NCBI GenBank assembly: GCA_951406725.2
Contig: OX597839.1
Location: forward strand, 36,332,001-36,396,000
Length of the DNA stretch: 64,000 nucleotides
Direction of reading: 5' to 3'
DNA from: Octopus vulgaris
Lineage: Eukaryota
Of this stretch, positions 5,810-51,086 are shown in pieces. Position numbers and translations under genes: made by a program. Below the pieces are notes generated by a model, which did not search any database, was not told the DNA's origin, and saw only the letters and a program-made list of their open reading frames with translations. Every line of letters begins with the position of its first letter. Position 1 is the stretch's first letter.

Positions 5810-7092
5810 GTAAGTGAAATATTAATTAGTTGATTAATAATCATTTAGTTACCTGTCACTATAGCACACTACCTTGTCATAGTTACACAATCTAGTCATG
5901 GTTATGTTTTTTGCACACTACCAAGTGATGGTCATCGGTCTCTGACCACAATCTCGTGATGGTTGCCTGTCTCTGACGTGACCTGGTGATTAACTGTCTC
6001 CAATTAACACACAAAATGGTCGATTCCTTTTAGAAAAGCATTATTAAAGATGTTATTAGCTTAGTTGAAGATTTGGTGTATTTGTGTAGTGCCAGGTCAG
6101 TTCTTATTATGCAGACTCAATGTGTTTACAAAAGATCCTTGACTCTGTGATGTTTCATCCTTTTAGCATTAAAACTGGCCTAAATATTCTAGAACCTGTT
6201 TTATGATCAAACTGGCCGGATCTGGCCTCTCACAGCTACCCTACAATGCCATTCTAAATATAAACAATGACATTTTTTGAAATCTTGCAGTATGAAATAA
6301 TTCATGATTAATACAAAATCAATGTGAATTAATAAGTATTAAATTTGCCAAATAAATCCGAGTGCTAAAGGGTTAATATTTGAAGTTTCTGCTTTATTTA
6401 AGGATCTGTTGTTGCAGTTGTTGTTTAAACTCAGGTCAATCCTGATTTAAGTGCACCAACATTTGATCAGGCATTGCGTCCAAACTCAGCTTGGACTATA
6501 TGATCGAATGTGTCCTTCCTTCCAATTTTTAAAAATGGAAGAATGTGATTCTGTAGAGACTGGCTGCTGTTTATGTCAAGTCAAGTGACCATACTCTACT
6601 CTCTCTTTTACTTGTTTCTGTCATTTGACTGCGGCCATGCTGGAGCACCACCTTTAGTCAAGCAAGTCTACCCCAGGACTTACTTGGTCTCTTTTGCCGA
6701 ACTGCTAAGTTACGGGGACGTAAATACCTCAGCATCGGTTTTCAAGCGATGTTGGGGGGGACAAACACAGACACACAAACATATACACACACATACATAT
6801 ATACATACGATGGGCTTCCTTCAGTTTCCGTCTACCAAATCCACTCACAAGGCCTTGGTTGGCCAGAGGCTATAGTAGAAGATACTTGCCCAAGGTGCCA
6901 TGCAGTGGGACTGAACCTGGAACCATGTGGTTGGTAAGCAAGCTACTTACCACACAGCCATTCCTGCGCCTATGTTGTAAAGAGACTTTTTCTACATGTA
7001 ATATACTGGGGTTCCCCAACTTAAGTTGTACCGTGTATGGTTTGTCTGATATTTGTAATCTAACCTAAAACTGTTTTTCTCTTTCTTTACAG

Positions 7093-7296
7093 AAATATGA
7101 AATAATGTGGCAAGGTCTTCTGGCATTGAAAAATGATAATGTAGTTGTGCAGATGCACTTAATGTCAGGAAATAGGCAGTTAATAGCACCATCTATGCCA
7201 CAGCTAGCTTCAGACTGCACCATGCAACCACTACGAATAAGCCAACGGATGCGCCTCGAGCCAATCCAGGTTGAAGGAGTGGCAAAACGGATGCAG
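7093..7296 (+). CDS. spen: spen SPOC domain exon 1 (KYEIMWQGLLALKND...LRISQRMRLEPIQVEGVAKRMQ)
   Basis: Matches SPOC motifs WQGLLALKND and LRIxQRMRLE of SPEN/SHARP. ttacAG acceptor, CAG|GTAAGT donor at 7297. Confidence 0.96.
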
Positions 7297-7412
7297 GTAA
7301 GTTATATTGACAGGTGAATGGGGTTGAATGGATAAGTCTACCAGTGTACAAGCTCATGTGCAAGAGATGTGGGTTGTGTCAGTGTGAGGAATCTTTAGTC
7401 TTGTCAAAGACA

Positions 7413-7625
7413 TTAGTTAGTTAGTTAATTTTGGCTCAAAAGCAAATAGCAAGGCCATGTAGGGGGACATGGACTTAAGTACAGGGTGGTGTTCATGTAA
7501 AGAGTTCAGGCCACTTGAGGTCAAGGGAGACTTTGAACAAAGCGGTCGTCGGCATCTTCACCATCTCGTCTGGCAGCTTGTTCCACGGATCTGCAACCTG
7601 GACGGAGATAGTGCTTGTGTCATGG
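7413..7625 (-). mobile_element. CR1-clade LINE 3' end in a spen intron
   Basis: SVQVADPWNKLPDEMVKMPTTALFKVSLD is a CR1/L2-type C-terminus; (TAAC)n tail. Confidence 0.8.
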
Positions 7626-8543
7626 TGGGGAAAAAAAACATCCAGTACATTCTGTAAAGTGGTCAGTGCAAGTGGATTATAAATTGCAGGATCCAACACA
7701 TTATAACTAGCAGCTACATCCAATATTGTGCGTGTGTTTCAATGTCTACCTTTCCATGCTGGCATGGGTGAGATGGAGTTTACTGTGGAAAATTTTCTAT
7801 GGCTGGATGCCCTTCTTGTCACCAACCCTTCTTTCTGAGCAAGATAGTATTTCCTCATGTTCGGATATGTTTTCTCAGAATATTGGAAATGAATGACACC
7901 GCTTGTGTGACAGTGATGCTCGTTTACATCATGTAACATCAAGACAGGGAGATATAAACTTAGACACACACATGATGGGCTATTTTTAGTTTCCAAATCT
8001 CTACTCACAAGGTTTTGATTGACCCAACGCTGTAGTAGACGACACTTGCCCAAGGGGTCACACTGGGACTAAACCCCAAACCATGTAGTTTTGAAGCAAA
8101 CCTCTGAACTTCACAGACATGACCGAGTCGTATGTGTGTGTGTGTGTGTGCATGCTTTACATAGGGCATCAGCACATTTGCTTTATATATGACACTCGCG
8201 GAGTGGTTGGCGTTAGGAAGGGCATCCAGCTCTAGAAACACTGCCAGATCAGACTGGAGCCTGGTGCAGCCCCTGGCTTCCCAGACCCCGGTCGAACCGT
8301 CCAACCCATGCTAGCGCGGAAAACGGACGTTAAACGATGATGCTGACACTGGCTTGGGTGCTTTCTAAGTGGTACTGGCACCTGTGAGCCCACAAGACGG
8401 ACTTTCAGCTGAGAGAGGGAGTGGAGAGCATAGCTGTAAAGGACATGCCTATGTATATGTGTTGTTTGTGTAAGTATGTATGTGGAAGGGGATAAAAAGT
8501 ATCAAGTTTAATGTGTTATTATTGTTTGGTGTTTTTTTTACAG

Positions 8544-8702
8544 TTGACGGAAGAGTATTGTATGCTGTTGGCCCTGCCTAATGGCCAAGACCATTTTGAA
8601 ATAATGCACCAAACTAGAGCTCTGAACAATGGTTTTATAAGTTACCTGAGCAGTAAGCAAGCTGCTGGAATCGTTAATGTGTCCAACCCAGAATCTCAGC
8701 AG
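8544..8702 (+). CDS. spen: spen SPOC domain exon 2 (LTEEYCMLLALP...FISYLSSKQAAGIVNVSNPESQQ)
   Basis: SPOC motif FIxYLxxKQAAGIxNV. tttacAG acceptor, CAG|GTATAC donor at 8703, phase 0/0. Confidence 0.96.
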
Positions 8703-9059
8703 GTATACTTCTTTTATAACATATTGTATTTATTTTGTGCTTTGTAATTTACACAAATCCCTTCAGCTGTAATTAGTGGCTAATTGATGATAATTGGTAA
8801 AATATCTTGATTATGGATGGCTGAAGGAGAAGGGTGGCAATATTATCTGATTTCAACCCAAGGCCAGAAATTTTAAGGGGAGACCCTTAATACTTGACTG
8901 GTTCTTTATTGTATTGACCCCCAAAAGGATGAGAGGCAAAGTTGACTTTGGCAGGATTTGAACTCAGAATGTAAAGTGCTGAAAGAAAAACTGCAAGGCA
9001 ACTCCAGTACATGATTAGTATTTTACCTGTCCGAGTCAGATGTCATGATTGATCGTTAG

Positions 9060-9224
9060 CCACTACACACATTTTTTTCTCTCCTTGTTTTTTCTGTGTC
9101 CCTTTCTGTAGAAGAGCGTAGGCTCGAAACGTTAAAGACTTGTTCTATTCCTGAGCGTTATACTAATACATCTGTTTGTTTTGTACACCACCTGTCTTCG
9201 CCTTTTATTTTTTTCGTAAACTCT

Positions 9225-9268
<44 letters not shown>

Positions 9269-9730
9269 CTTTACTACCCACAAGGGGCTAAACATAGAGG
9301 GGACAAACAAACGGATTAAGTCGATTCCATCGACCCCAGTGCGAAACTGGTACTTAATTTATCGACCCTGAAAGGATGAAAGGCAAAGTCGACCTCGGCG
9401 GAATTTGAACTCAGAACGTAACGGCAGACAAAATACGGCTACGCATTTCGCCCGGCGTGCTACCGTTTCTGCCAGCTCGCCGCCTTTATATATATATACA
9501 CATACACACACCATTAAAACTAAAGATACACCCATACACCACTAAAGATACATGCCTGTATATAGCCACTACACACATTTTTTTCTCTCCTTGTTTTTTC
9601 TGTGTCCCTTTCTGTAGAAGAACATAGGCTCGAAATGTAAAAGACTTTTTCTATTCCTGAGCGTTAAACTAATACATCTGTTTGTTTTGTACACCACCTG
9701 TCTTCGTCTTTTGTTTTTTTCGTAAACTCT

Positions 9731-9791
<61 letters not shown>

Positions 9792-10290
9792 CACCATTAA
9801 AACTAAAGATACACCCATACACCACTAAAGATACATGCCTGTATATAGCCACTACACACACCATGTTTCTCTCCTTGTTTTTTCTGTGTCCCTTTCTGTA
9901 GAAGAGCGTAGGCTCGAAACGTAAAAGACTTTTTCTATTCCTGAGCGTTATACTAATACATCTGTTTGTTTTGTACACCACCTGTCTTCGCCTTTTATTT
10001 TTTTCGTAAACTCTCCCTATATATATATATATATATATATATACATACACATACACACACCATTAAAACTAAAGATACACCCATACACCACTAAAGATAC
10101 ATGCCTGTATATAGCCACTACACACATTTTTTTTCTCTCCTTGTTTTTTCTGTGTCCCTTTCTGTAGAAGAACATAGGCTCGAAATGTAAAAGACTTTTT
10201 CTATTCCTGAGCGTTATACTAATACATCTGTTTGTTTTGTACACCACCTGTCTTCGTCTTTTGGTTTTTTTTCGTAAACTTTCCCTAGTA
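9060..10290 (+). repeat. Tandem array of four ~270-bp Penelope-tail/retrozyme-like units with hammerhead-like motifs, in the last spen intron
   Basis: Units start (ccactacacac) at 9060, 9566, 9849 and 10115. Each contains ctttCTGTAGAAGAGCGTAGGCTCGAAACGT(T/A)aaag or a mutated version and an internal (TA)n. Unit 1 carries a SINE insertion. Confidence 0.85.
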
Positions 10291-10396
10291 TTTTACTTGG
10301 TTTGATATATTTCTTCATTTGACCCAAGAAAAAAATAGAAATCTTATTAGTTCAGCCTGTGATTCTAATAATTATCTCCTTTGTATTTTTTTTCAG

Positions 10397-10525
10397 CCTG
10401 CTTATGTCGTCCATATTTTCCCACCATGCGAGTTTTCTCGCCTGAAACTACGAGAGGCCGGATTTGAATTGATGAACCAAGTGTCTGACTTTGCTCATCT
10501 TGTGATTGTGATTACCACGGTCTAG
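10397..10525 (+). CDS. spen: spen terminal coding exon (PAYVVHIFPPCEFS...HLVIVITTV*)
   Basis: Matches the SPEN C-terminus PAYVLQIFPPCEFS...HLMIVIASV. tttcAG acceptor at 10395-10396, TAG at 10523-10525. Confidence 0.96.
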   Translation, partial: PAYVVHIFPPCEFSRLKLREAGFELMNQVSDFAHLVIVITTV

Positions 10526-13500
10526 TCGAATTCTGGCCAAATATTGGATTGACATGCCACACAAAGTCATCAGAAGAGGGGGCTGTACCCTGCTGTGATT
10601 CTTGTTGTTGTTGTTGTTGTTGTCATCATCAAAGTTGTCTGCAGACAAACCAATCAGCATCAGCCCAAAATCGATGACAACACACAATATGATATGGAGG
10701 TGATGGGTAAACTCACCAGTAGAATCAGCAGAGAGCTGCTGACTTTCTTGTACCAAATTGTCATGGAGACAATATTAGGTGACCACCACCACCACCACCA
10801 CCACCACTTACAACCAACTCCTCTTCTCTCTGTTCTATATTTACAACCAAACCATGTTCACTGTATTTTGCATACGTTTCATATATCCAGTGGAAAGAAA
10901 AGTTGGCGATGATTTAAAAGGGGAGACGAAGGACAAGAAAAAAAAGATCTAGTGCTGAAATCTGTAAGAGTTTGGTCGCGTGATTATCTCGACGACGATG
11001 TCCCTGTTGATTGCATAACTAGACTTTTATTTTCTCAGTGAAATCCTCATCCAAAGTGATAAACGGACTCAAAGTGTGTTTGTGTGTGAGTTCCGTCTTC
11101 CCAGTGATGACTTTCTATCAATGATACCGCTTCCAAAGATCTTTAAAGGATGAGTACACCATTTAGGAATTAAAAACAAAACAAAAAAAAAAAAAAAGGA
11201 CATTTGTGAATGAGGAATTAGATCCAGACCAACGGGATCTTATATATTATTATTATTAATATTATAATACACAGGAAAACTTCAAAAAAAGCCCTCCCCT
11301 CTTTTAATTTTAAATTTTTTTTTTTTTTTTTTTCAAAAGTGAATTTTTTTTAAACAAACAAAAAAAGCAAAATTTTATTTTATTTATTTAATACTTTCCC
11401 CCCTGCCTCGTTACACACTGACCACCACCCCCTTTATTTAGTGACTCCACCAGGGTTTCAACCAATACTGCTGCTCAAACCCGACCCCCCCCCTCTTGTA
11501 CTGCAAGTCCCAGTCGTTGTGGGGGAGATTAATGACAATAATTACATACATACACTGCTTTATGTGACAAGTCTCTCTATATCTCTCTCTCTCTATATCT
11601 CACTCTCACACTTCGGAGCAGTCTTGTAATAAGGTGAATCATGTAAACAAGGATTTTTTTGCTCTTGGAAGGCAGCTAAATCTTTCTTCACACTTCTCAA
11701 AACTATTTCTTTCAATAGTTATTTTAAAACCCTTTTTTTTTTTTAACCCTTTCTAGCCCCATTAATAATTTTAGTTCAAATATTTTAATTTTTGTTGGTT
11801 TAATTAATATAATTGAAAGAAAGAGAAGAAAAAAAATGTTTTAAAAACAAAAAAAACCCCAGCCCCTCCACAAGCTATGTATATGTATGTAAAGAGAGAG
11901 TGCCCTGCCAGCCACTCCACCCCCATTTCTAATCAGTTCCTCTTCTTTCTCATCTTCCCTATTATTTTTTTTTTATTTTCTTTTATCAAACTTTTTTTTT
12001 TATTTCATTTCTTGGCATTTTAAAGAATTTTTTTGTTCTCTCTCTGTCTTTCTCCTGCCCCTCAAACTGTTGTATATATTGTAATTAAAATGAGGGGAGT
12101 GGCTGAAGTGATAGTCAAACGACACTGTAGGCTGGCTGAGTGCACCCCACCCCCTTTCTATCACGTGATCTCATTACCCTGCTGCTGGCCAGCTACTGCT
12201 ATTTCTCTCCATAAAAGAAGGACATGCTTCAGAGGATGGCAGTTGGCTCCTGTGGCTATTTAAAAAAAAAAAGAAAGAAGAAAATGAAAATATAAATGGA
12301 TTTGAACAAAAAAAAAATGAAATGAAATGAACATAAAATATAAATAAATGAAATAAAATAATAAAAAAAAACAACTTTTCAAAACACCACTCCCCTCCCT
12401 TGCAACAAGTTTTAATCTCTTTCTCTTCCTTCCGCCAGTGACTAAACAGAGCAATTGTATGGTGGAGGGAGGGACACAGTTTCCTCTCCCTCTCTCTCTT
12501 ATTCCCCCCCCTTCCAAAGCTACAAATTTTCTCTCATTCCCTTTTTTTTTTTTTTTTTTCCAAGTAAAACACCAAAGTTTGGTATTAACGCCTCTCTCTA
12601 CTTTGGGGGCTCAGGTTAGTCCACGATTTCACTCCCCAAACCCCAGCCACCAGGGAAGAGTGAGACGAAACACACAACTGCTTGGTGTTGATCAAAAAAA
12701 AGAAAAAAAGAAGAAAAAAAAAACAAAAAAAAAGGAGGAAAAAAACAAAAATGAAAAATTTCAAAAAAAAAAAAGCAAGAAAAACTAAAAAGTGAAAATT
12801 ATTTTGTTAATGTTGTTGTTGTTGGTCATATATTGTTTATGACTGTAAACAAAGCCAGATGCTTTTAATTTGCGCTTCGGCACGAATGGCATAAACATGG
12901 TCCCATTTGTTATTTTATTTTGATCAGAAACTACCTATCCAAGCAAATAATAATAATAATATAAATAATAATAATAGTTGTAGTAATGATGATGACATTT
13001 TTAGAAAAATGGTAGTCATTCCATGATTCCACTGGTTGCTTGTTATCGACCTCTGTCCAGTTTCTTGGGAGTCCAGAGTTGTGATAGCAAACCAGTGGAC
13101 GAAAGGAAGAAGCAAAGTTGTCTTTCTCATTACAACAGAATTAAGGGAAAAAAAAGAAAATAATAAAAAAAAAAAGAATTCTCTGAAAAAAAGAGAAGGC
13201 CAATGTTTATGTGTGTGTGCGCGTATGAAAGACGGAGAAAGCGCGTGTGCGTGAGTGACCGAGAATTTGTACAAAGATGATGCTATCTTCTGTAAATTAA
13301 ATCCTGTTATATCAGTTACTGTTGGAACCTCTCTGTTTGGACAGGTGCTGCACTTCTTATTGAACCTGACACTCTCTCTCTATCTCTCTGTCTCTCTCTC
13401 TATCCCATCTCTCTTCATTACGCTCAAACCATTTTGGGACCTGTTGGTTGGTGTATAAAAATTGTTGTAAATAGATTTTCAATGTACATCTTGTATATTT

Positions 13501-17575: not shown

Positions 17576-18030
17576 CTGTATATAACATATTGATATTTAT
17601 TCCCCGATTTGAAGTGACAATTTTTAAATATAAACAAATGACTGAAAAGTGATGAGCTAACCTCAGGCAGAATCGAACTCCCAAATCGATGCTTTCATGG
17701 CTCCTTGCAAATCTGATTGGCCAAATGCCCACCCATCAATTTCAGTCAAATTTACTTAAACTGTGTTGATACTACATGAATGATATTTTTATAAACAAAC
17801 CCCAAAAGGCTTTGCAAGTTATGGGGAGAAAGCTACTATGCAAGGCTCATAGTATAATAACTGAAATTGATGGGTGAGTGTTTGGGTATTCAGATTCGCA
17901 AGGAGCCATGAAAGTGTTGATTTGTGAGTTCAACTCTGCTTGAGGTTAAGTCGTTTTTTCAGTCATTTCTTTATATTTAAAAATTGTTGCTTCAAATTGG
18001 AGAATAGATATCATTATGACATATATACAG
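17576..18030. mobile_element. Foldback element with ~170-bp diverged inverted arms
   Basis: 17576-17746 (ctgtatata...aatttcagt) is the reverse complement of ~17860-18030 (actgaaatt...tatatacag). Confidence 0.78.
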
Positions 18031-20601
18031 TTCTGATATATATATATATATGTGTGTGTGTGTGTCAAAGAAGTGCAGGCTGTGTATACCTGAAGGAACA
18101 CTCGTCCGTATTAGATCAAAGAACTGCACCTACCTTCTGAACGGGCCAGACTTTTTCTTATATAAATGAATGCATCTTCACTTACACGACTACCTCTATG
18201 TAAAGTATCTTATTTTTGGCATTGTGTTGACACAACGAACTTAAAATACCTCAGATATTCAACCGGTAACAGTTTTACTGGATAAAGGGAAATAACCCAT
18301 CTCCCAATTATTTCCCTTCCCATTAGATACTTTTTCTTAATTTTTCTCTCAGTTTGCCCCCTGTTTCTTCAGAGTAAGCCAAGTTTTATGAACCTGATCG
18401 ATTGTAGAATAATGCATGCTACACTCTTCAAACTCATACGAACACTGCACTATTCAAAGGGTGAAGTTAGATGCCGCTTGTGCATGAATTTTTGAGGCTG
18501 TGTGGTTAAAACATTTACTCCTTATGATAGCAATATTCCTGAAACTGGCCTTGTGTGGTTCTGTGATACAAATTTCCCCATTTTAAAGGAATCGTAGATT
18601 TAGACCTTCCATCAGAGTTTCATGCTAAGTTATGTTTCAAACATCAGATTAACGGTGACAAATCGATCTTACACTTTTTTTTTTTTTCAAAATTAACAAA
18701 AGAAAAGGCAGTGTATGGCAACCAACAGTTAGTGTTTGCATTCCAAACCAACTTAGACATCTATTGCCTGTCAGAAGCAGTTTATTTCTGCTAAACTAAC
18801 ATAGTGTGTGTGTGTGTATTATGGGAGACCTGATAAAACATGAGTTGCAGCTTATGTTATTTGTTCACTGCATACATCTCATTCTTGCAATTACCTGCAT
18901 CCTCTACTGAAGGTGTTCCTAATGTAAATGAATGTTTAACCTCTACAGTTTGTCAGGTGAACACGTTATTGCATTATGTTACACAGATTAATTGCTACTG
19001 GAATTAGACTGGAGGATCACATCCACTCAGTGTTTCTCAGCCCCCATCCCCTGTTTTTTTTCCTATGGACCCCTTTTGATTTCCTATTTTACTCAGATGG
19101 ACCCTTGTAGCCATTCATCATCATCATCATCATTGTCCGTTTTCCATGCTAGCATGGGTTGGACGGTTTAACTGGGGTCTGTGAAGCCGGAAGGCTTCAT
19201 CAAGCCCAGTCAGATTTGGCAGTGTTTCTACGGCTGGATGCCCTTCCTAACGCCAACCACTCCGTGAGTGTAGTGGGTGCTTTTTGCTTTTTCAATGTTT
19301 AAAAAATCCTACAATATGTTTATAATTAAATATTGTTAGGAATTGTATAGAAAAATTAATATATTTTGTGTATTGCAGCAGTTTATTTGCACATAATCAT
19401 CATCATCGTTATAACGTCCGCTTTCCATGCTAGCATGGGTTGGATGACTTGTCTGAGGACTGGCAAACCAGATGGTTGTACCAGGCTCCAATCTTGATTT
19501 GGCAGAGTTTCTACAGCTGGATGCCCTTCCTAATGCCAACCAGTCCAAGAGTGTAGTGGGTGCTTTTACGTGCCAGTCAGGCGGTACTGGCAATAGCCAC
19601 GCTCAAATGGTGCTTTTTATGTGCCACATGCACAGGAGCCAGTCCAGCGGCACTGGCAACGGCCTCGCTCGAATGTTTTCTTCATGTGCCGCCAGCACAA
19701 GTGCTAGTAAGTCAACGCAGGTAATGATCAAGCTCGAATGGTGCTTTTTACGTACCACCAGCACGGAGGCCAGTTCGCTGCTCTGGCAACAATTACGCTC
19801 GGATGGTAAGTTTTAACTGAATCATATACGGACCCTGCTTGAGAACCACTGCACTATGTGGGTCCCTAAACTCACCAGTTGCAGTCATACATCTAACTGT
19901 ACACACAACATCATACTATATATCATATACATATTCAAATGCTCATAAGTTAAAAACTTTAATGGAGTTTCTTTATCACTCGATGCTGTAGAAGAAACGT
20001 TTGCCAACTTACTACAACAAACAGGTTGCCCTCACCTTTACTGATTTTACTGAAAGGTAGGCGCGGGCATGGCTGTGTGGTTAGGGAGCTTGCTTCCTAG
20101 ATACATGGTTTCGGGTTCAGTCCCCCTGCGTGACACTTTGGGTAGGTGTCTTCCGCTATAGCCCTGAACTGACCGGAGCTTTGTGATTGAATTCGGTAGG
20201 CGGAAGTTACTGCCGTGCGTGTAGGTGTTTGTGCCTCTCCGAAAGAGAGAGAGAGTAAATATTCATAACTTATTACACCCCACTCCCTTCAGTTTAGGGA
20301 ATTTACTTTGTGAGTTACTTGGTGACATCACTGGGGCTGGTACCACATTATAAAGAATCTCGTACACTTTGGCATAGCTTCTCCAGTTGGATGTTCGTCC
20401 GAACCCCAACCATTTTATAAAGTAGATAATGGAGATTGAGCCAGTCGTTTAGCTCACCAGCATCAAAAACTGATGTTAAATGCTGATGATTTTGAAGAAC
20501 TTTGTGACTTTGGTACATACAAGACTTGCAAGTTGATAAGAGCATTACAACATACAGGTTAGAAATTCAAGTTGCTAATTTCAGTCCAATCTTTCATTTA
20601 A

Positions 20602-20821
20602 CCCTTTCGTTACCAACCCGGCTGAAACTGGCTCAGGCTCTGGGTACAAATGTCCTGTTTTCATAAGTTTTTAATTAAAATCTTCCACCAAACCTTAGTC
20701 ACAATTAATGTTCCTAACACTAACTGAATGATAACTAAGTTATTTTACTAAATTCTTCATTAGATTTAAAATAATTGGGAGAAACACAGAGTATCTCAAA
20801 ATAAATACAGTTACGAAAGGG
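20602..20821. mobile_element. piggyBac-like MITE (TTAA TSD); inverted copy at 52356-52574
   Basis: TTAA-CCCTTTCGT...ACGAAAGGG-TTAA. Confidence 0.88.
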
Positions 20822-21155
20822 TTAATATCCCATTAGATGGGAATTCCTTTATTCCTTGTTTAGATGGGTTGGGCAATTTTACTGTTTCAAGGACTGCATC
20901 ATGCTCCACTACTTTCAGATGGTTTCTGCGGCTTGATACCATTCTTAAGGCCAACCACTTCACGGCACTAGCATATAGTGTGGTCACTGTGCCTCTTGCA
21001 AAAAACATACAACCCTCGGGAGAGATTTATTCTAGGAAATGAGGGGTTAACTGGCCAATACAAGTAAACAAACCAACTCCAAAACTCTTCCACCTATTCC
21101 ATTTCTCACACTGCAGGCTCCCTCAAATCCCCTCCAGCCAAAACTTATTCTAGTC

Positions 21156-25391: not shown

Positions 25392-27251
25392 CTACCATTC
25401 AGCATCTCCGACTGCCTTAGAGAACAACATATCTCGACCAAACAGGTTCAAAATGCCGTCTTTTAACTGAAACTTCCATTTGTTTTTAATGCGAGAAATT
25501 TTCACAAACTGGCAGACGATAACGTTTTCTGATTCGAACATGGCGCAGATGTCTGCATCGCTGTCGTCGTCCGCGGTATTTAACGGGTCGGATTCAATAC
25601 CAATGTCTACAATTGCTTCGTCAATTTCATCGCTTATGTTGCTACTTCCAGATTCGCTGCTGCTATCTTCATCTTTGCTTGTGTTGTTGTTGTCAGAGGA
25701 AGAAGTTGAACCAGTGTTCTCACCATCACATTGACGAGACATATTCAAATATTTTCTTTTGACCCTGACTGAAGACACGTTTGTGCCATTGCCCAAATTA
25801 TGTCCAGATAGGTCCTCTATTTCTGCGTCAGTAGTTCCGTCCATTTGTAAAATTTCTTCTATAGTTTTCATATCTTCCTCACTTAACTGACATATTTTTC
25901 CGACTCCACTTCCTTTACAAGAATTATCCGAAGACGATGCCACAGACATGATGGAGGTCTGGCCCAGTGAGTCATTTAACAAAGTAGGTTTATTATTATT
26001 ATTATTGTTATTATTGGCGGTGGTGGTATCAGCTGGAGGAAATTTAGGGTGTTCATCTGGAATGTAACTTTGACAATTTTGCGAAAGTGGGCCAGATATA
26101 TCCTCGAGAAAATCTTCTAGAGTGGACGGAGTGTTGTCTACCGACGTTCTACTCTCGTCGTAAAAAGGAGGCAATGGTTTAACTACAGGGTAACCTGTAA
26201 AGTTATCTTGGTGGGAAAGTGAAGAGACGGGAAGACGATTGGGCTGATTCGAACTGCAAAAGTAATTCTGCTCCAGATTTCCTCCGTGACAAGATGGAGC
26301 AAAAGAGGAGATTCGAGAAGTTAAAAATTCACTGTTCGCTTTACTGGTTTCTGCTTGTGTGGTTATTAAACTCTTCTGTGCCTGCTGAACCGAGTTACTA
26401 TCGTTTTTCTCAGAAATGCCACAGCGGGTCCCGTTGTTTGGTCCAGCATCTCCAAGTAGTTCACTTCCATTTGTTGACAACTGACCAACAGGGTCATTTG
26501 CATTGCTGTTGTCATTATTATTCTGTTCCTTGGCAGAATTAACGTTTGTATGTACAGCAGCCGTGCTAGAAATAACTCGGTCGGTAGCATTAGACAGAGA
26601 GGAACTAGTCGTAGTCGGTGCAGTACTTTCACTAATTACAGCAACGTTTAATGGTAAAGGGGTTTTGGTAGCCGGGCCGTGTAATTTGGAAGGCGATCTT
26701 CCAGCTTGGTAAATGGAAGGCAAATTGAAATTTGAAGGAGGACACCGAGAAGTCGGTTTGTTGTTATCGTTAACAGAATGGGACTCACCTGAATTTTCAG
26801 ATGTCCAAGCAGTAGGAACTGGCTGCAGTAGATGTTGTTCTGGCGGGAGAATAGCCAAAAAATGTCCATTACGGTTACGTTGAAGAGAGATTCCGGCATT
26901 ATTTAAATCCCTGATTTGCTGGTTGTAAAGTCCATACGGAAGGGCTATGGTAGCAGTCGTACAAGAACTTCGTGGTCCGCGCATGCGAGGCCCTGCCAAA
27001 TGAATAGAAGGAACAAATAGTTCAGAATTGTTGTTGCTACACGCAGGAGAAATAATTCCATAACCATCAACATTTGTTCGGTTTACTTTAGAAAATTCAA
27101 ACACTTTAGAATCGTGGATTTTCTTTAACCACGCTTCTTTCATGTCCGTAAGAACAGTTTCATCGATACCTTCTTCTATAAATAGTTCGCGGCTGGACTG
27201 AACAACATCTTCTACGACACTTTTATAGAATTTAGCAACAGGGTCGCTCAT
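25392..27251 (-). CDS. GTF2A1-like: Intronless TFIIA large subunit (alpha/beta precursor)-like protein, 619 aa; probable retrogene paralog
   Basis: N-term VAKFYKSVVEDVVQSSRELFIEEGIDETVLTDMKEAWLKKI is the TFIIA alpha helical domain. C-term ENVIVCQFVKISRIKNKWKFQLKDGILNLFGRDMLFSKAVGDAEW is the TFIIA beta-barrel. Also has a taspase-type site QMDGTTD and an acidic region. Single uninterrupted 1860-nt ORF. Confidence 0.95.
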   Translation of the reverse strand: MSDPVAKFYKSVVEDVVQSSRELFIEEGIDETVLTDMKEAWLKKIHDSKVFEFSKVNRTNVDGYGIISPACSNNNSELFVPSIHLAGPRMRGPRSSCTTATIALPYGLYNQQIRDLNNAGISLQRNRNGHFLAILPPEQHLLQPVPTAWTSENSGESHSVNDNNKPTSRCPPSNFNLPSIYQAGRSPSKLHGPATKTPLPLNVAVISESTAPTTTSSSLSNATDRVISSTAAVHTNVNSAKEQNNNDNSNANDPVGQLSTNGSELLGDAGPNNGTRCGISEKNDSNSVQQAQKSLITTQAETSKANSEFLTSRISSFAPSCHGGNLEQNYFCSSNQPNRLPVSSLSHQDNFTGYPVVKPLPPFYDESRTSVDNTPSTLEDFLEDISGPLSQNCQSYIPDEHPKFPPADTTTANNNNNNNNKPTLLNDSLGQTSIMSVASSSDNSCKGSGVGKICQLSEEDMKTIEEILQMDGTTDAEIEDLSGHNLGNGTNVSSVRVKRKYLNMSRQCDGENTGSTSSSDNNNTSKDEDSSSESGSSNISDEIDEAIVDIGIESDPLNTADDDSDADICAMFESENVIVCQFVKISRIKNKWKFQLKDGILNLFGRDMLFSKAVGDAEW

Positions 27252-27298
27252 ACTCCGAGGATTCGAAGAAACTCTTTCACCTGTGTCCTGTGTCCCTG

Positions 27299-27367
27299 TT
27301 TAAATAGTTGTGGTTACGAAGCAAACTAATTTGTATATGTAAAATAGCTGTAGGAAAAGGTGACGTA
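27299..27367 (-). promoter_or_regulatory. Possible core promoter of the TFIIA-like gene (TATA-like TATTTAAA and CRE-like TGACGT)
   Basis: TATTTAAA on - at 27299-27306, about 48 nt upstream of the ATG. TGACGTA at 27361-27367. Short motifs only. Confidence 0.3.
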
Positions 27368-27510: not shown

Positions 27511-28057
27511 GGCAAGACCCCCTCCCAAACCACCCTTAAAATTTTTTTTTTCGACACAACCCCACCTCTTTTCGGCTACGGGGAATACGAATCTGCAAAA
27601 AAAGAATTGGCCAAAGATTGACATTTCTAAATTACCACCCCCATTTCCTTCATTTTAAACTTTTTCCCTTTTTTTTTAATATGCGGAAAAATACGGAGAT
27701 TATGATTCTAAAAAAAAAAAAAAATTTCCAAAAATCTTTGTAAAATTTTTTTAAAGAATTTTTTTTCTAAATATGCAGGAAAATACGGGCATCATGATTC
27801 GGACAAAACTTTCAAAACATTTCTGTACTTACGGTTGGGGTTTTAGGGTTAGGCTTAGGGTTTTAGGGTTAAGATTAGGGTTTTAGGGTTAAGGTATTAG
27901 GGTTTTAGGGTTAGGGTTGTAGGGTTAGTGTTGGGGAAAAAAGTCAAAATTGAAGGGGAGAAAAATTTCACAATACCGATTTTTGGCAAAAAAAAAAAAA
28001 TTACAAAAATAAAGAGATTTGGGAGAAAATGGGGTGAGAGTGGGCAGAAGTCTTTCC
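27511..28057. mobile_element. Merlin-like non-autonomous DNA transposon carrying degenerate TTAGGG repeats
   Basis: Exact 8-bp TSD GAAGAGCT (27503-27510, 28058-28065). Imperfect TIR GGCAAGAC.../GGAAAGAC.... Confidence 0.75.
27833..27935 (+). repeat. Interstitial degenerate telomeric-type (TTAGGG)n tract
   Basis: Repeated ttaggg/ttttaggg/ttagggtt units. Confidence 0.9.
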
Positions 28058-30372: not shown

Positions 30373-30418
30373 GACACCTGAAGAAGGCTGGAGGGTATAT
30401 CAGCTGAAACGTTGTGTT
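30373..30418 (+). ncRNA. Minimal type-I hammerhead ribozyme-like motif in a Penelope-like element tail (~30330-30466)
   Basis: gacac-CTGAAGA-a-GGCTG-(10 nt)-CAGCT-GAAAC-GTT-gtgtt: stem I gacac/gtgtt, intact CUGANGA and GAAA core, stem II, palindromic ACGT stem III. Confidence 0.65.
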
Positions 30419-50713: not shown

Positions 50714-51086
50714 ACACAAACAGGCAGGGACATCTGTGATAATGTATCTTCCATAACTCAAGAAAGCCAGGATAGTTAGGACAGGTGAGTGTTGACTGAG
50801 GGTTTAGTTGTCACTCTCTCTCTTTATCTCACATTCCACTTTACCTGTTTGAAAACATAATAATTCTTACCAATCTGACAGCCTCAACATGTGTGTGTGT
50901 GTGTGTGTGTGTATGACACACAGCTGTAGGTGTGGCTGTGGACATGTGGTTTGCTCCCTAGTTACCATGGCTCTGAATTTCGTTCAACTTTGTGTTTTAT
51001 AGCTTCAGGCTGATCAAACCTTTGCTAATTTGTTTGTTTGTACTCCACCTGCCTTCGTCTTTTGTTTTTTTCGTAAACTTTCTCTT

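Follow-up and report, generated by a model that had tools for sequence, protein, structure and literature searches.

Penelope-like elements (PLEs) of metazoans carry minimal type I hammerhead motifs in their pLTR sequences (Cervera and de la Pena 2014, PMC4209133), and these motifs, which cleave weakly and only as dimers, are among the closest described systems to the sequence analysed here. The likeness extends to the location in the pLTR, a short helix I, one additional base inserted after position 9 and before 10.1, the G10.1-C11.1 pair, a palindromic 15.2-16.2 step without a helix III loop, and the prevalence of solitary truncated element ends. The motif described here differs in its core, which reads CUGUNGA where the alignment rows consulted in the supplement of PMC4209133 have CUGANGA (the core variant given there is U3-A8), in a helix II of 4 bp as opposed to 7-8, and in its highly uniform sequence.

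The PLE hammerhead has been studied in vitro with PAc, a Poseidon element from Anolis (Frangieh et al. 2024, PMC11167929); it cleaved only in the presence of the element protein, and cleavage was dispensable for insertion. Reverse transcription of PAc starts at +111-118 and the cut lies at +26, i.e., 85-92 nt apart, and, as in the family described here, the hammerhead is positioned about 85-95 nt upstream of the 3' end of the insertion, with AT-rich sequences as targets. The PAc hammerhead overlaps the start codon of its element, whereas in the present family the ORF begins only several hundred bases later and encodes a protein with a Neptune/Nematis-type Cys linker. The Neptune/Nematis clades of PLEs, which carry an endonuclease (Craig et al. 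2021, PMC8557442), resemble the present family, a candidate member, in an RT followed by a C-terminal GIY-YIG domain, a CX4CxxC linker, an insertion bias for (TA)n and partial tandems. Metazoan non-LTR retrozymes (PMC7229834; bioRxiv 10.64898/2026.07.22.740005) are similar to the array at this locus in their tandem units (266-284 bp), a GC content below 45%, a type I hammerhead and their derivation from PLEs; unlike them, the array unit does not form a dispersed family of tandems (it occurs at four loci), possesses no two consecutive intact motifs, and has a monomer that is not strongly self-paired.

Changes at core position 6 are costly in other hammerheads. Single mutants of the CUGA turn have low activity (PMC9901934), and natural or engineered A6C ribozymes are slow in Mg2+ and active in Mn2+ (PMC3088659, PMC7151607). 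At position 17, G impairs minimal hammerheads (PMC3884650). Phage Bcep176 has a hammerhead with a natural A6C change (PMC3088659, PMC7151607), which likewise places a pyrimidine at core position 6; it carries C and not U, however, and is a single monomeric phage ribozyme active mainly in Mn2+, whereas the motif studied here is present in ~18,000-21,000 exactly matching copies for which cleavage is predicted. Hammerheads in Penelope pLTRs are known as such, and what would be new here, judging from sequence, is a U6 core that pervades a family. No natural U6 PLE hammerhead was found in the literature listings that were searched; Lunse et al. 2017, which reportedly deals with small variants of the PLE hammerhead whose cleavage takes place in dimers, may contain one.

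Four pLTR ends in the last intron of a probable spen-type gene

The window, a stretch of 64,000 nt of Octopus vulgaris DNA (contig OX597839.1, positions 36,332,001 to 36,396,000), contains the following features around the array:

8544-8702, + strand: upstream host exon, SPOC-like, of a probable spen-type gene; open frame, spliced contigs and a weak Pfam SPOC match (E 9.4e-4, below the cut-off)
8703-10396, + strand: last host intron, GT..AG, which contains the array; open frames and a 1694-nt joint in X1 and X6
9027-9227, + strand: unit 1 (type A), a pLTR end from the Penelope-like family with 5' truncation and no spacer upstream
9102-9137, + strand: minimal type I hammerhead motif of unit 1, U6 A7 core, U17; predicted cut after 9133
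9228-9266, no strand assigned: (TA)n tract located at the 3' end of the element, 94 nt 3' of H17
9262-9487, + strand: unrelated interspersed repeat inserted in the (TA)n tract, with many other copies in the window
9507-9563, + strand: 57-bp spacer, copy 1
9564-9733, + strand: unit 2 (type B), pLTR end with a damaged motif at 9608-9643 (A.C in stem II, ATGT)
9790-9846, + strand: 57-bp spacer, copy 2, after (TA)n 9734-9791
9847-10017, + strand: unit 3 (type A)
9892-9927, + strand: minimal type I hammerhead motif of unit 3, U6 A7 core, A17; predicted cut after 9923
10056-10112, + strand: 57-bp spacer, copy 3, after (TA)n 10018-10047
10113-10285, + strand: unit 4 (type B), with its motif (10158-10193) damaged and without a (TA)n tail
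10397-10526, + strand: last host coding exon up to the stop codon; open frame, spliced contigs

An earlier note on this DNA, made from its letters, had described four units of ~270 bp in sense orientation within the last intron of spen, between two SPOC exons. Four related units (starts 9058, 9564, 9847 and 10113) are indeed present on the sense strand of intron 8703-10396; their start-to-start spacing is 506, 284 and 266 bp, and it is uneven because the unrelated 226-bp repeat at 9262-9487, which we take to be SINE-like, sits between units 1 and 2. Read as open frames, the exons flanking the intron join in frame and then run into a stop codon; the SPOC part of the claim fares less well, as the upstream match is weak and a Pfam search of the downstream exon gave no SPOC match. 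The host gene is presumably spen, in line with that upstream match.

The order of the units is A-B-A'-B', and intact and damaged motifs alternate. At 9102-9137 and 9892-9927, the motif of units 1 and 3 has the sequence CTTT-CTGTAGA-A-GAGC(gtag)GCTC-GAAAC-GT-H-AAAG, exactly as first reported, with H17 at 9133 (GTT) in unit 1 and at 9923 (GTA) in unit 3. Helix I, helix II, G12, A13, A14 and A15.1, U16.1 and H17, and the palindromic 15.2-16.2 step are present in units 1 and 3 and not in units 2 and 4, in which stem II contains an A.C mismatch and ATGT replaces ACGT; folding gives stem II a pairing probability of 1.0 in the former and 0 in the latter. The consensus core C3 U4 G5 A6 N7 G8 A9 is not matched in any of the four, all of which have U6. 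Because A6 is lacking, the motif is not counted as a consensus hammerhead, and we have filed that of the family as a hammerhead variant and not as a consensus minimal type I member. An Rfam scan of positions 7000-12000, the kind of covariance-model search proposed at the outset, returned no hammerhead match at E<=10.

Elsewhere in the window, a lone 55-bp stub at 51028-51082 represents the extreme 3' end of the same Penelope-like element, with the motif absent. Unrelated features are a 635-aa uninterrupted frame on the minus strand (25395-27299), possibly an intronless gene or a retrocopy, and a short interstitial run of TTAGGG-like repeats (27838-27932).

A Penelope-like family whose expanded subfamilies carry U6

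The four units derive from an abundant, endonuclease-bearing Penelope-like retrotransposon, of which they represent 3' ends (pLTRs) with 5' truncation, in keeping with the Penelope link that had been suggested from the motif. Exact copies of a 22-mer taken from the motif number 17,870 in the genome, a downstream anchor has 21,094, and a flank-anchored pattern has 19,900 matches compared with 3 for a reversed control; the motif is therefore not a chance occurrence. Most copies are solitary and 5'-truncated and end in (TA)n, with the element 3' end located 94-96 nt past H17, and long copies extend upstream into a GIY-YIG-type frame. In four near-full-length regions (L101-L104), the direct pLTRs that flank the coding region each contain a CUGUUGA motif (twice in 4/4, 4.2-4.9 kb apart), and the coding region between them combines an RT with a C-terminal GIY-YIG endonuclease. 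The pLTR pairs are repeats of 500-1150 bp with 92-95% identity. The RT and CxxC/GIY-YIG-like frames of these regions are broken by frameshifts; in L104, the Pfam RVT_1 match has an E value of 8.9e-7, just under the cut-off, and no Pfam GIY-YIG match was obtained at E 0.01. L104 is 28% identical over about 490 aa to L047, which itself has Pfam RVT_1 and GIY-YIG matches. A CX4CxxC linker is found in L101-L103 and L105, one Cys being changed in L104, and this linker would fit Neptune/Nematis, for which PMC8557442 gives a CX2-5CxxC linker that separates RT and endonuclease. Element ends also occur in inverted pairs at distances of 140-650 bp (L009/L010, L178/L179, L193), which is the known fold-back layout of PLEs.

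The core deviation from CUGANGA, initially noted as a caveat, proved to be a property of the family. For an unbiased sample, we turned to the downstream anchor, which lies outside the motif, and took its first 90 matches, all from the first 11 Mb of one contig; 21 of them were dropped since no motif was found (18 truncated at or inside the motif, three damaged). Among the 69 copies kept, N6 is T in 67 and A in two, N7 is variable (T29 A22 C12 G6), and N17 is mostly A (A54 T13 C1 G1). The flank-anchored matches concur: the first 100 of the 19,900, counted by eye, have T at position 6 in 96 cases and A in none, with two rows being unrelated or rearranged. CTG followed by a non-T base occurs in 602 of the 17,870 exact copies, the first 100 of which comprise 71 C, 19 A and 10 G (by eye). 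Hence, U6 is the state of the expanded subfamilies of this family and not a local lesion or decay.

How strongly the motif is constrained can be read from the polymorphic columns (at least 15%): 0/28 in core and stems against 13/50 downstream (p=0.003) and 38/110 in the flank (p=7e-5), values that are optimistic since the columns share a tree, and with indel noise in the flank alignment. Within the 36 columns from stem I to stem I, only N7 and N17 are polymorphic, while the two bases just outside stem I differ by subfamily. Such a pattern bears on the reading that the motif died with A6>U and that one master copy after another has passed it on by chance. Few master lineages are involved, a 28-nt stretch can escape change, and the columns are not independent of each other; yet the contrast of 0/28 with 13/50 (p=0.003) goes together with an N7 that took four states within the very same stretch, and we regard a dead relic as quite improbable. 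The constancy of U6 itself calls for restraint: 74% of the downstream columns also never vary, and a single N6 change without reversion therefore does not show that U6 has been favoured by selection.

Constraint need not mean catalysis. Loop II, which is nominally free, and the A between positions 9 and 10.1 are invariant (0/5 columns polymorphic), and the covariation in stems I and II that had been proposed as a check did not materialize, the helices being invariant and without any compensatory change among the 69 copies; other hammerhead families in the genome have the same layout with different helices. With loop II and the extra A fixed and no stem compensation, the constraint could therefore be on sequence for protein binding. 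Along these lines, the units would have the same origin, and the U6 motif would be non-cleaving, its fold or sequence being kept for binding by the element protein, for instance to place the start of reverse transcription ~95 nt downstream. Such a role would sit well with the crippling effect of A6 changes on other hammerheads (PMC9901934, PMC7151607), with PLE insertion in vitro proceeding without cleavage (PMC11167929), with a loop II as invariant as the core and stems that do not covary, and with an alternative helix favoured by U6: when the monomer is folded, U4-G5-U6 can pair with A15.1-C-G, giving -7.8 and -8.6 kcal/mol compared with -7.4 kcal/mol for the form containing stem I. Pure binding would not lead one to expect, however, that the only polymorphic positions among the 36 columns, N7 and N17, are those that catalysis leaves free, or that G17, which impairs minimal hammerheads according to PMC3884650, is found in just 1/69 copies. 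We hold this binding-only role to be the foremost, yet doubtful, alternative.

The direction of the core change was approached with a midpoint-rooted tree of 81 ends (the 69 kept copies, eight further A6 copies and the four window units), from which N6, N7 and N17 were masked. The tree is ladder-like, and eight of the ten A6U7 copies fall into the most diverged clade (support 98), whose mean pairwise distance of 0.195 contrasts with 0.059 in the youngest group. Within the unbiased set, A6 is found in 2/11 members of that clade and in 0/58 elsewhere (p=0.023). Endonuclease fragments compared with L104 point the same way: two A6 copies are 62-68% identical to it, a copy with G7 reaches 70%, and a young copy 92-95%. 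We infer that A6>U was likely a single event in an old lineage, and that the remainder of the fold persisted in later subfamilies while N7 changed repeatedly.

Other hammerhead families reside in the same genome. A second repeat family (L210-L239, with a copy at window position 30378 on the plus strand) has 2,251 exact copies, a canonical A6 core, a 5-bp helix II and a 10-nt loop, and no coding partner linked to it emerged; position 6 is A in 97 and U in one of the first 100 copies, so U6 is not a genome-wide trend. An independent origin of U6 in this second family was considered from about 50 of 91 matching rows (by eye) and set aside, as these are scattered mutants of an A6 family. A separate young PLE family (L047, L052 and relatives) with many open 781-aa frames has a minimal hammerhead with a U3-A8 core pair; this family, retrieved in the GIY-YIG search, was rejected as the parent because it has this motif of its own. 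At locus L113, a further hammerhead-like motif of yet another family (canonical core, long helix II) was seen by eye ~300 bp upstream of the first unit.

Origin of the array and its relation to the host gene

The 57-bp spacer that separates the units is rare. Five near-exact matches exist, and BLAST finds six at four loci: three in the array, two in the dimeric loci L109 and L113, and one at L119, where it precedes a solitary end and is interrupted by another repeat. All four loci are on contig C26 at 33.5-36.3 Mb, i.e., within 2.8 Mb of a 2.8-Gb genome. A segmental duplication as their source was rejected because no shared unique flanks were found when the 3-kb loci were compared. At three multi-unit loci the sequence upstream of the first unit is element-native and not spacer, and the arrays are therefore not rolling-circle products; both units of L113 bear the marks of another subfamily. 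Site differences number two between units 2 and 4, five between units 1 and 3, and 8-10 across types, which would agree with duplication of an A-B pair. We consider it likely that the array multiplied locally at the DNA level; local ectopic conversion or local retrotransposition of a chimeric RNA are possible origins.

These data also bear on the retrozyme reading proposed in the earlier note. Retrozymes form a dispersed family of tandem non-coding monomers, whereas the spacer occurs at four loci, and a tandem second end within 500 bp was found in at most 1/90 sampled copies (L200); two further copies of this sample show no more than a local duplication of 31 nt, and another has a neighbouring end in inverted orientation. 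Along the array, moreover, intact and damaged motifs alternate. With two retrozyme features lacking, we do not class the array as a retrozyme; stem II is kept in only two of its four motifs.

The same note envisaged dimeric self-cleavage of the spen pre-mRNA or the production of small circles; in the form considered here, units 1 and 3 are the dimer partners, and the array acts as a retrozyme or in regulation. Two intact sense motifs do lie 790 nt apart, minimal hammerheads need a tandem layout (PMC4209133), and all dimer pairs between units form on paper; the active dimer fold, however, lies at least 9 kcal/mol above the minimum-energy fold in 5/5 pairs tested, and units 2 and 4 are decayed. 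The presence of the spacer-plus-end unit at four loci implies that it has been copied, yet the genome contains no spacer outside these loci, and the element-native sequence upstream of the first unit at three loci does not fit a rolling circle. The unit 3-to-unit 4 monomer, the most regular of the candidate circles, folds no better than shuffled sequences (z 0.21); the other three candidates reach stronger z-scores, with long (TA)n tracts or the inserted repeat being part of what was folded. The spliced product, finally, is present: 1694 nt with GT..AG ends are skipped in contigs of X1 and X6, two probable RNA runs from two studies, while contigs of two large runs (X15, X16) lack the joint; such assembled contigs carry no ends, strand or level, and their depth was not counted as evidence. 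Intron 8703-10396 is removed normally in X1 and X6, and we judge self-cleavage or circle release by the spen transcript to be very improbable.

In the A7 subfamily, U6-A7-G8 reads TAG and creates AG sites at 9111, 9617, 9901 and 10167 of the window, each preceded by an 88% pyrimidine tract that is free of AG for 50-51 nt. The true 3' splice site at 10396 looks weaker (75% pyrimidine, AG-free for 39 nt), and 3' splicing at 9111 would bring a stop after seven codons. No joint at the motif TAG sites was found among the contig joints listed, with 233 further joints beyond these and with contigs that drop rare forms. Cryptic splicing at the motif TAG is a more plausible route to an effect on the host than cleavage; nevertheless, the array is probably ordinary transposon debris that leaves the host gene unaffected.

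What the U6 hammerhead may do

We lean, with somewhat more confidence than doubt, towards the explanation that the units are Penelope pLTR ends whose U6 hammerhead cuts slowly, and only when folded by protein, and that it is inert in the host intron. The element protein would nick (TA)n, and reverse transcription would begin at an internal site, ~95 nt downstream of the motif, and mostly terminate early so that stumps remain. A6>U would have occurred once in an old lineage, with later masters still needing the fold. At the array locus, a chimeric unit consisting of spacer and end may have joined a resident end, the pair then being duplicated to A-B-A'-B'. Residual dimeric or protein-assisted cleavage with U6 is predicted and would be relevant in the RNA of the element itself.

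A bolder version combines a natural CUGUNGA hammerhead that truly cleaves in tens of thousands of PLE copies, with a U6-A15.1 safety catch released by the element protein or Mn2+, and a captured spacer-plus-end unit hopping locally within a single chromosome as a nascent retrozyme; we consider this combination unlikely.

In the one study that has addressed whether Penelope hammerheads must cleave, cleavage in vitro depended on protein and was dispensable for insertion. The family described here constitutes a natural experiment in this respect: a core change that cripples other hammerheads has been carried through several waves of copying with the rest of the fold apparently fixed, and A6 relatives in the same genome serve as controls. 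Searches based on CUGANGA would overlook the entire U6 family.
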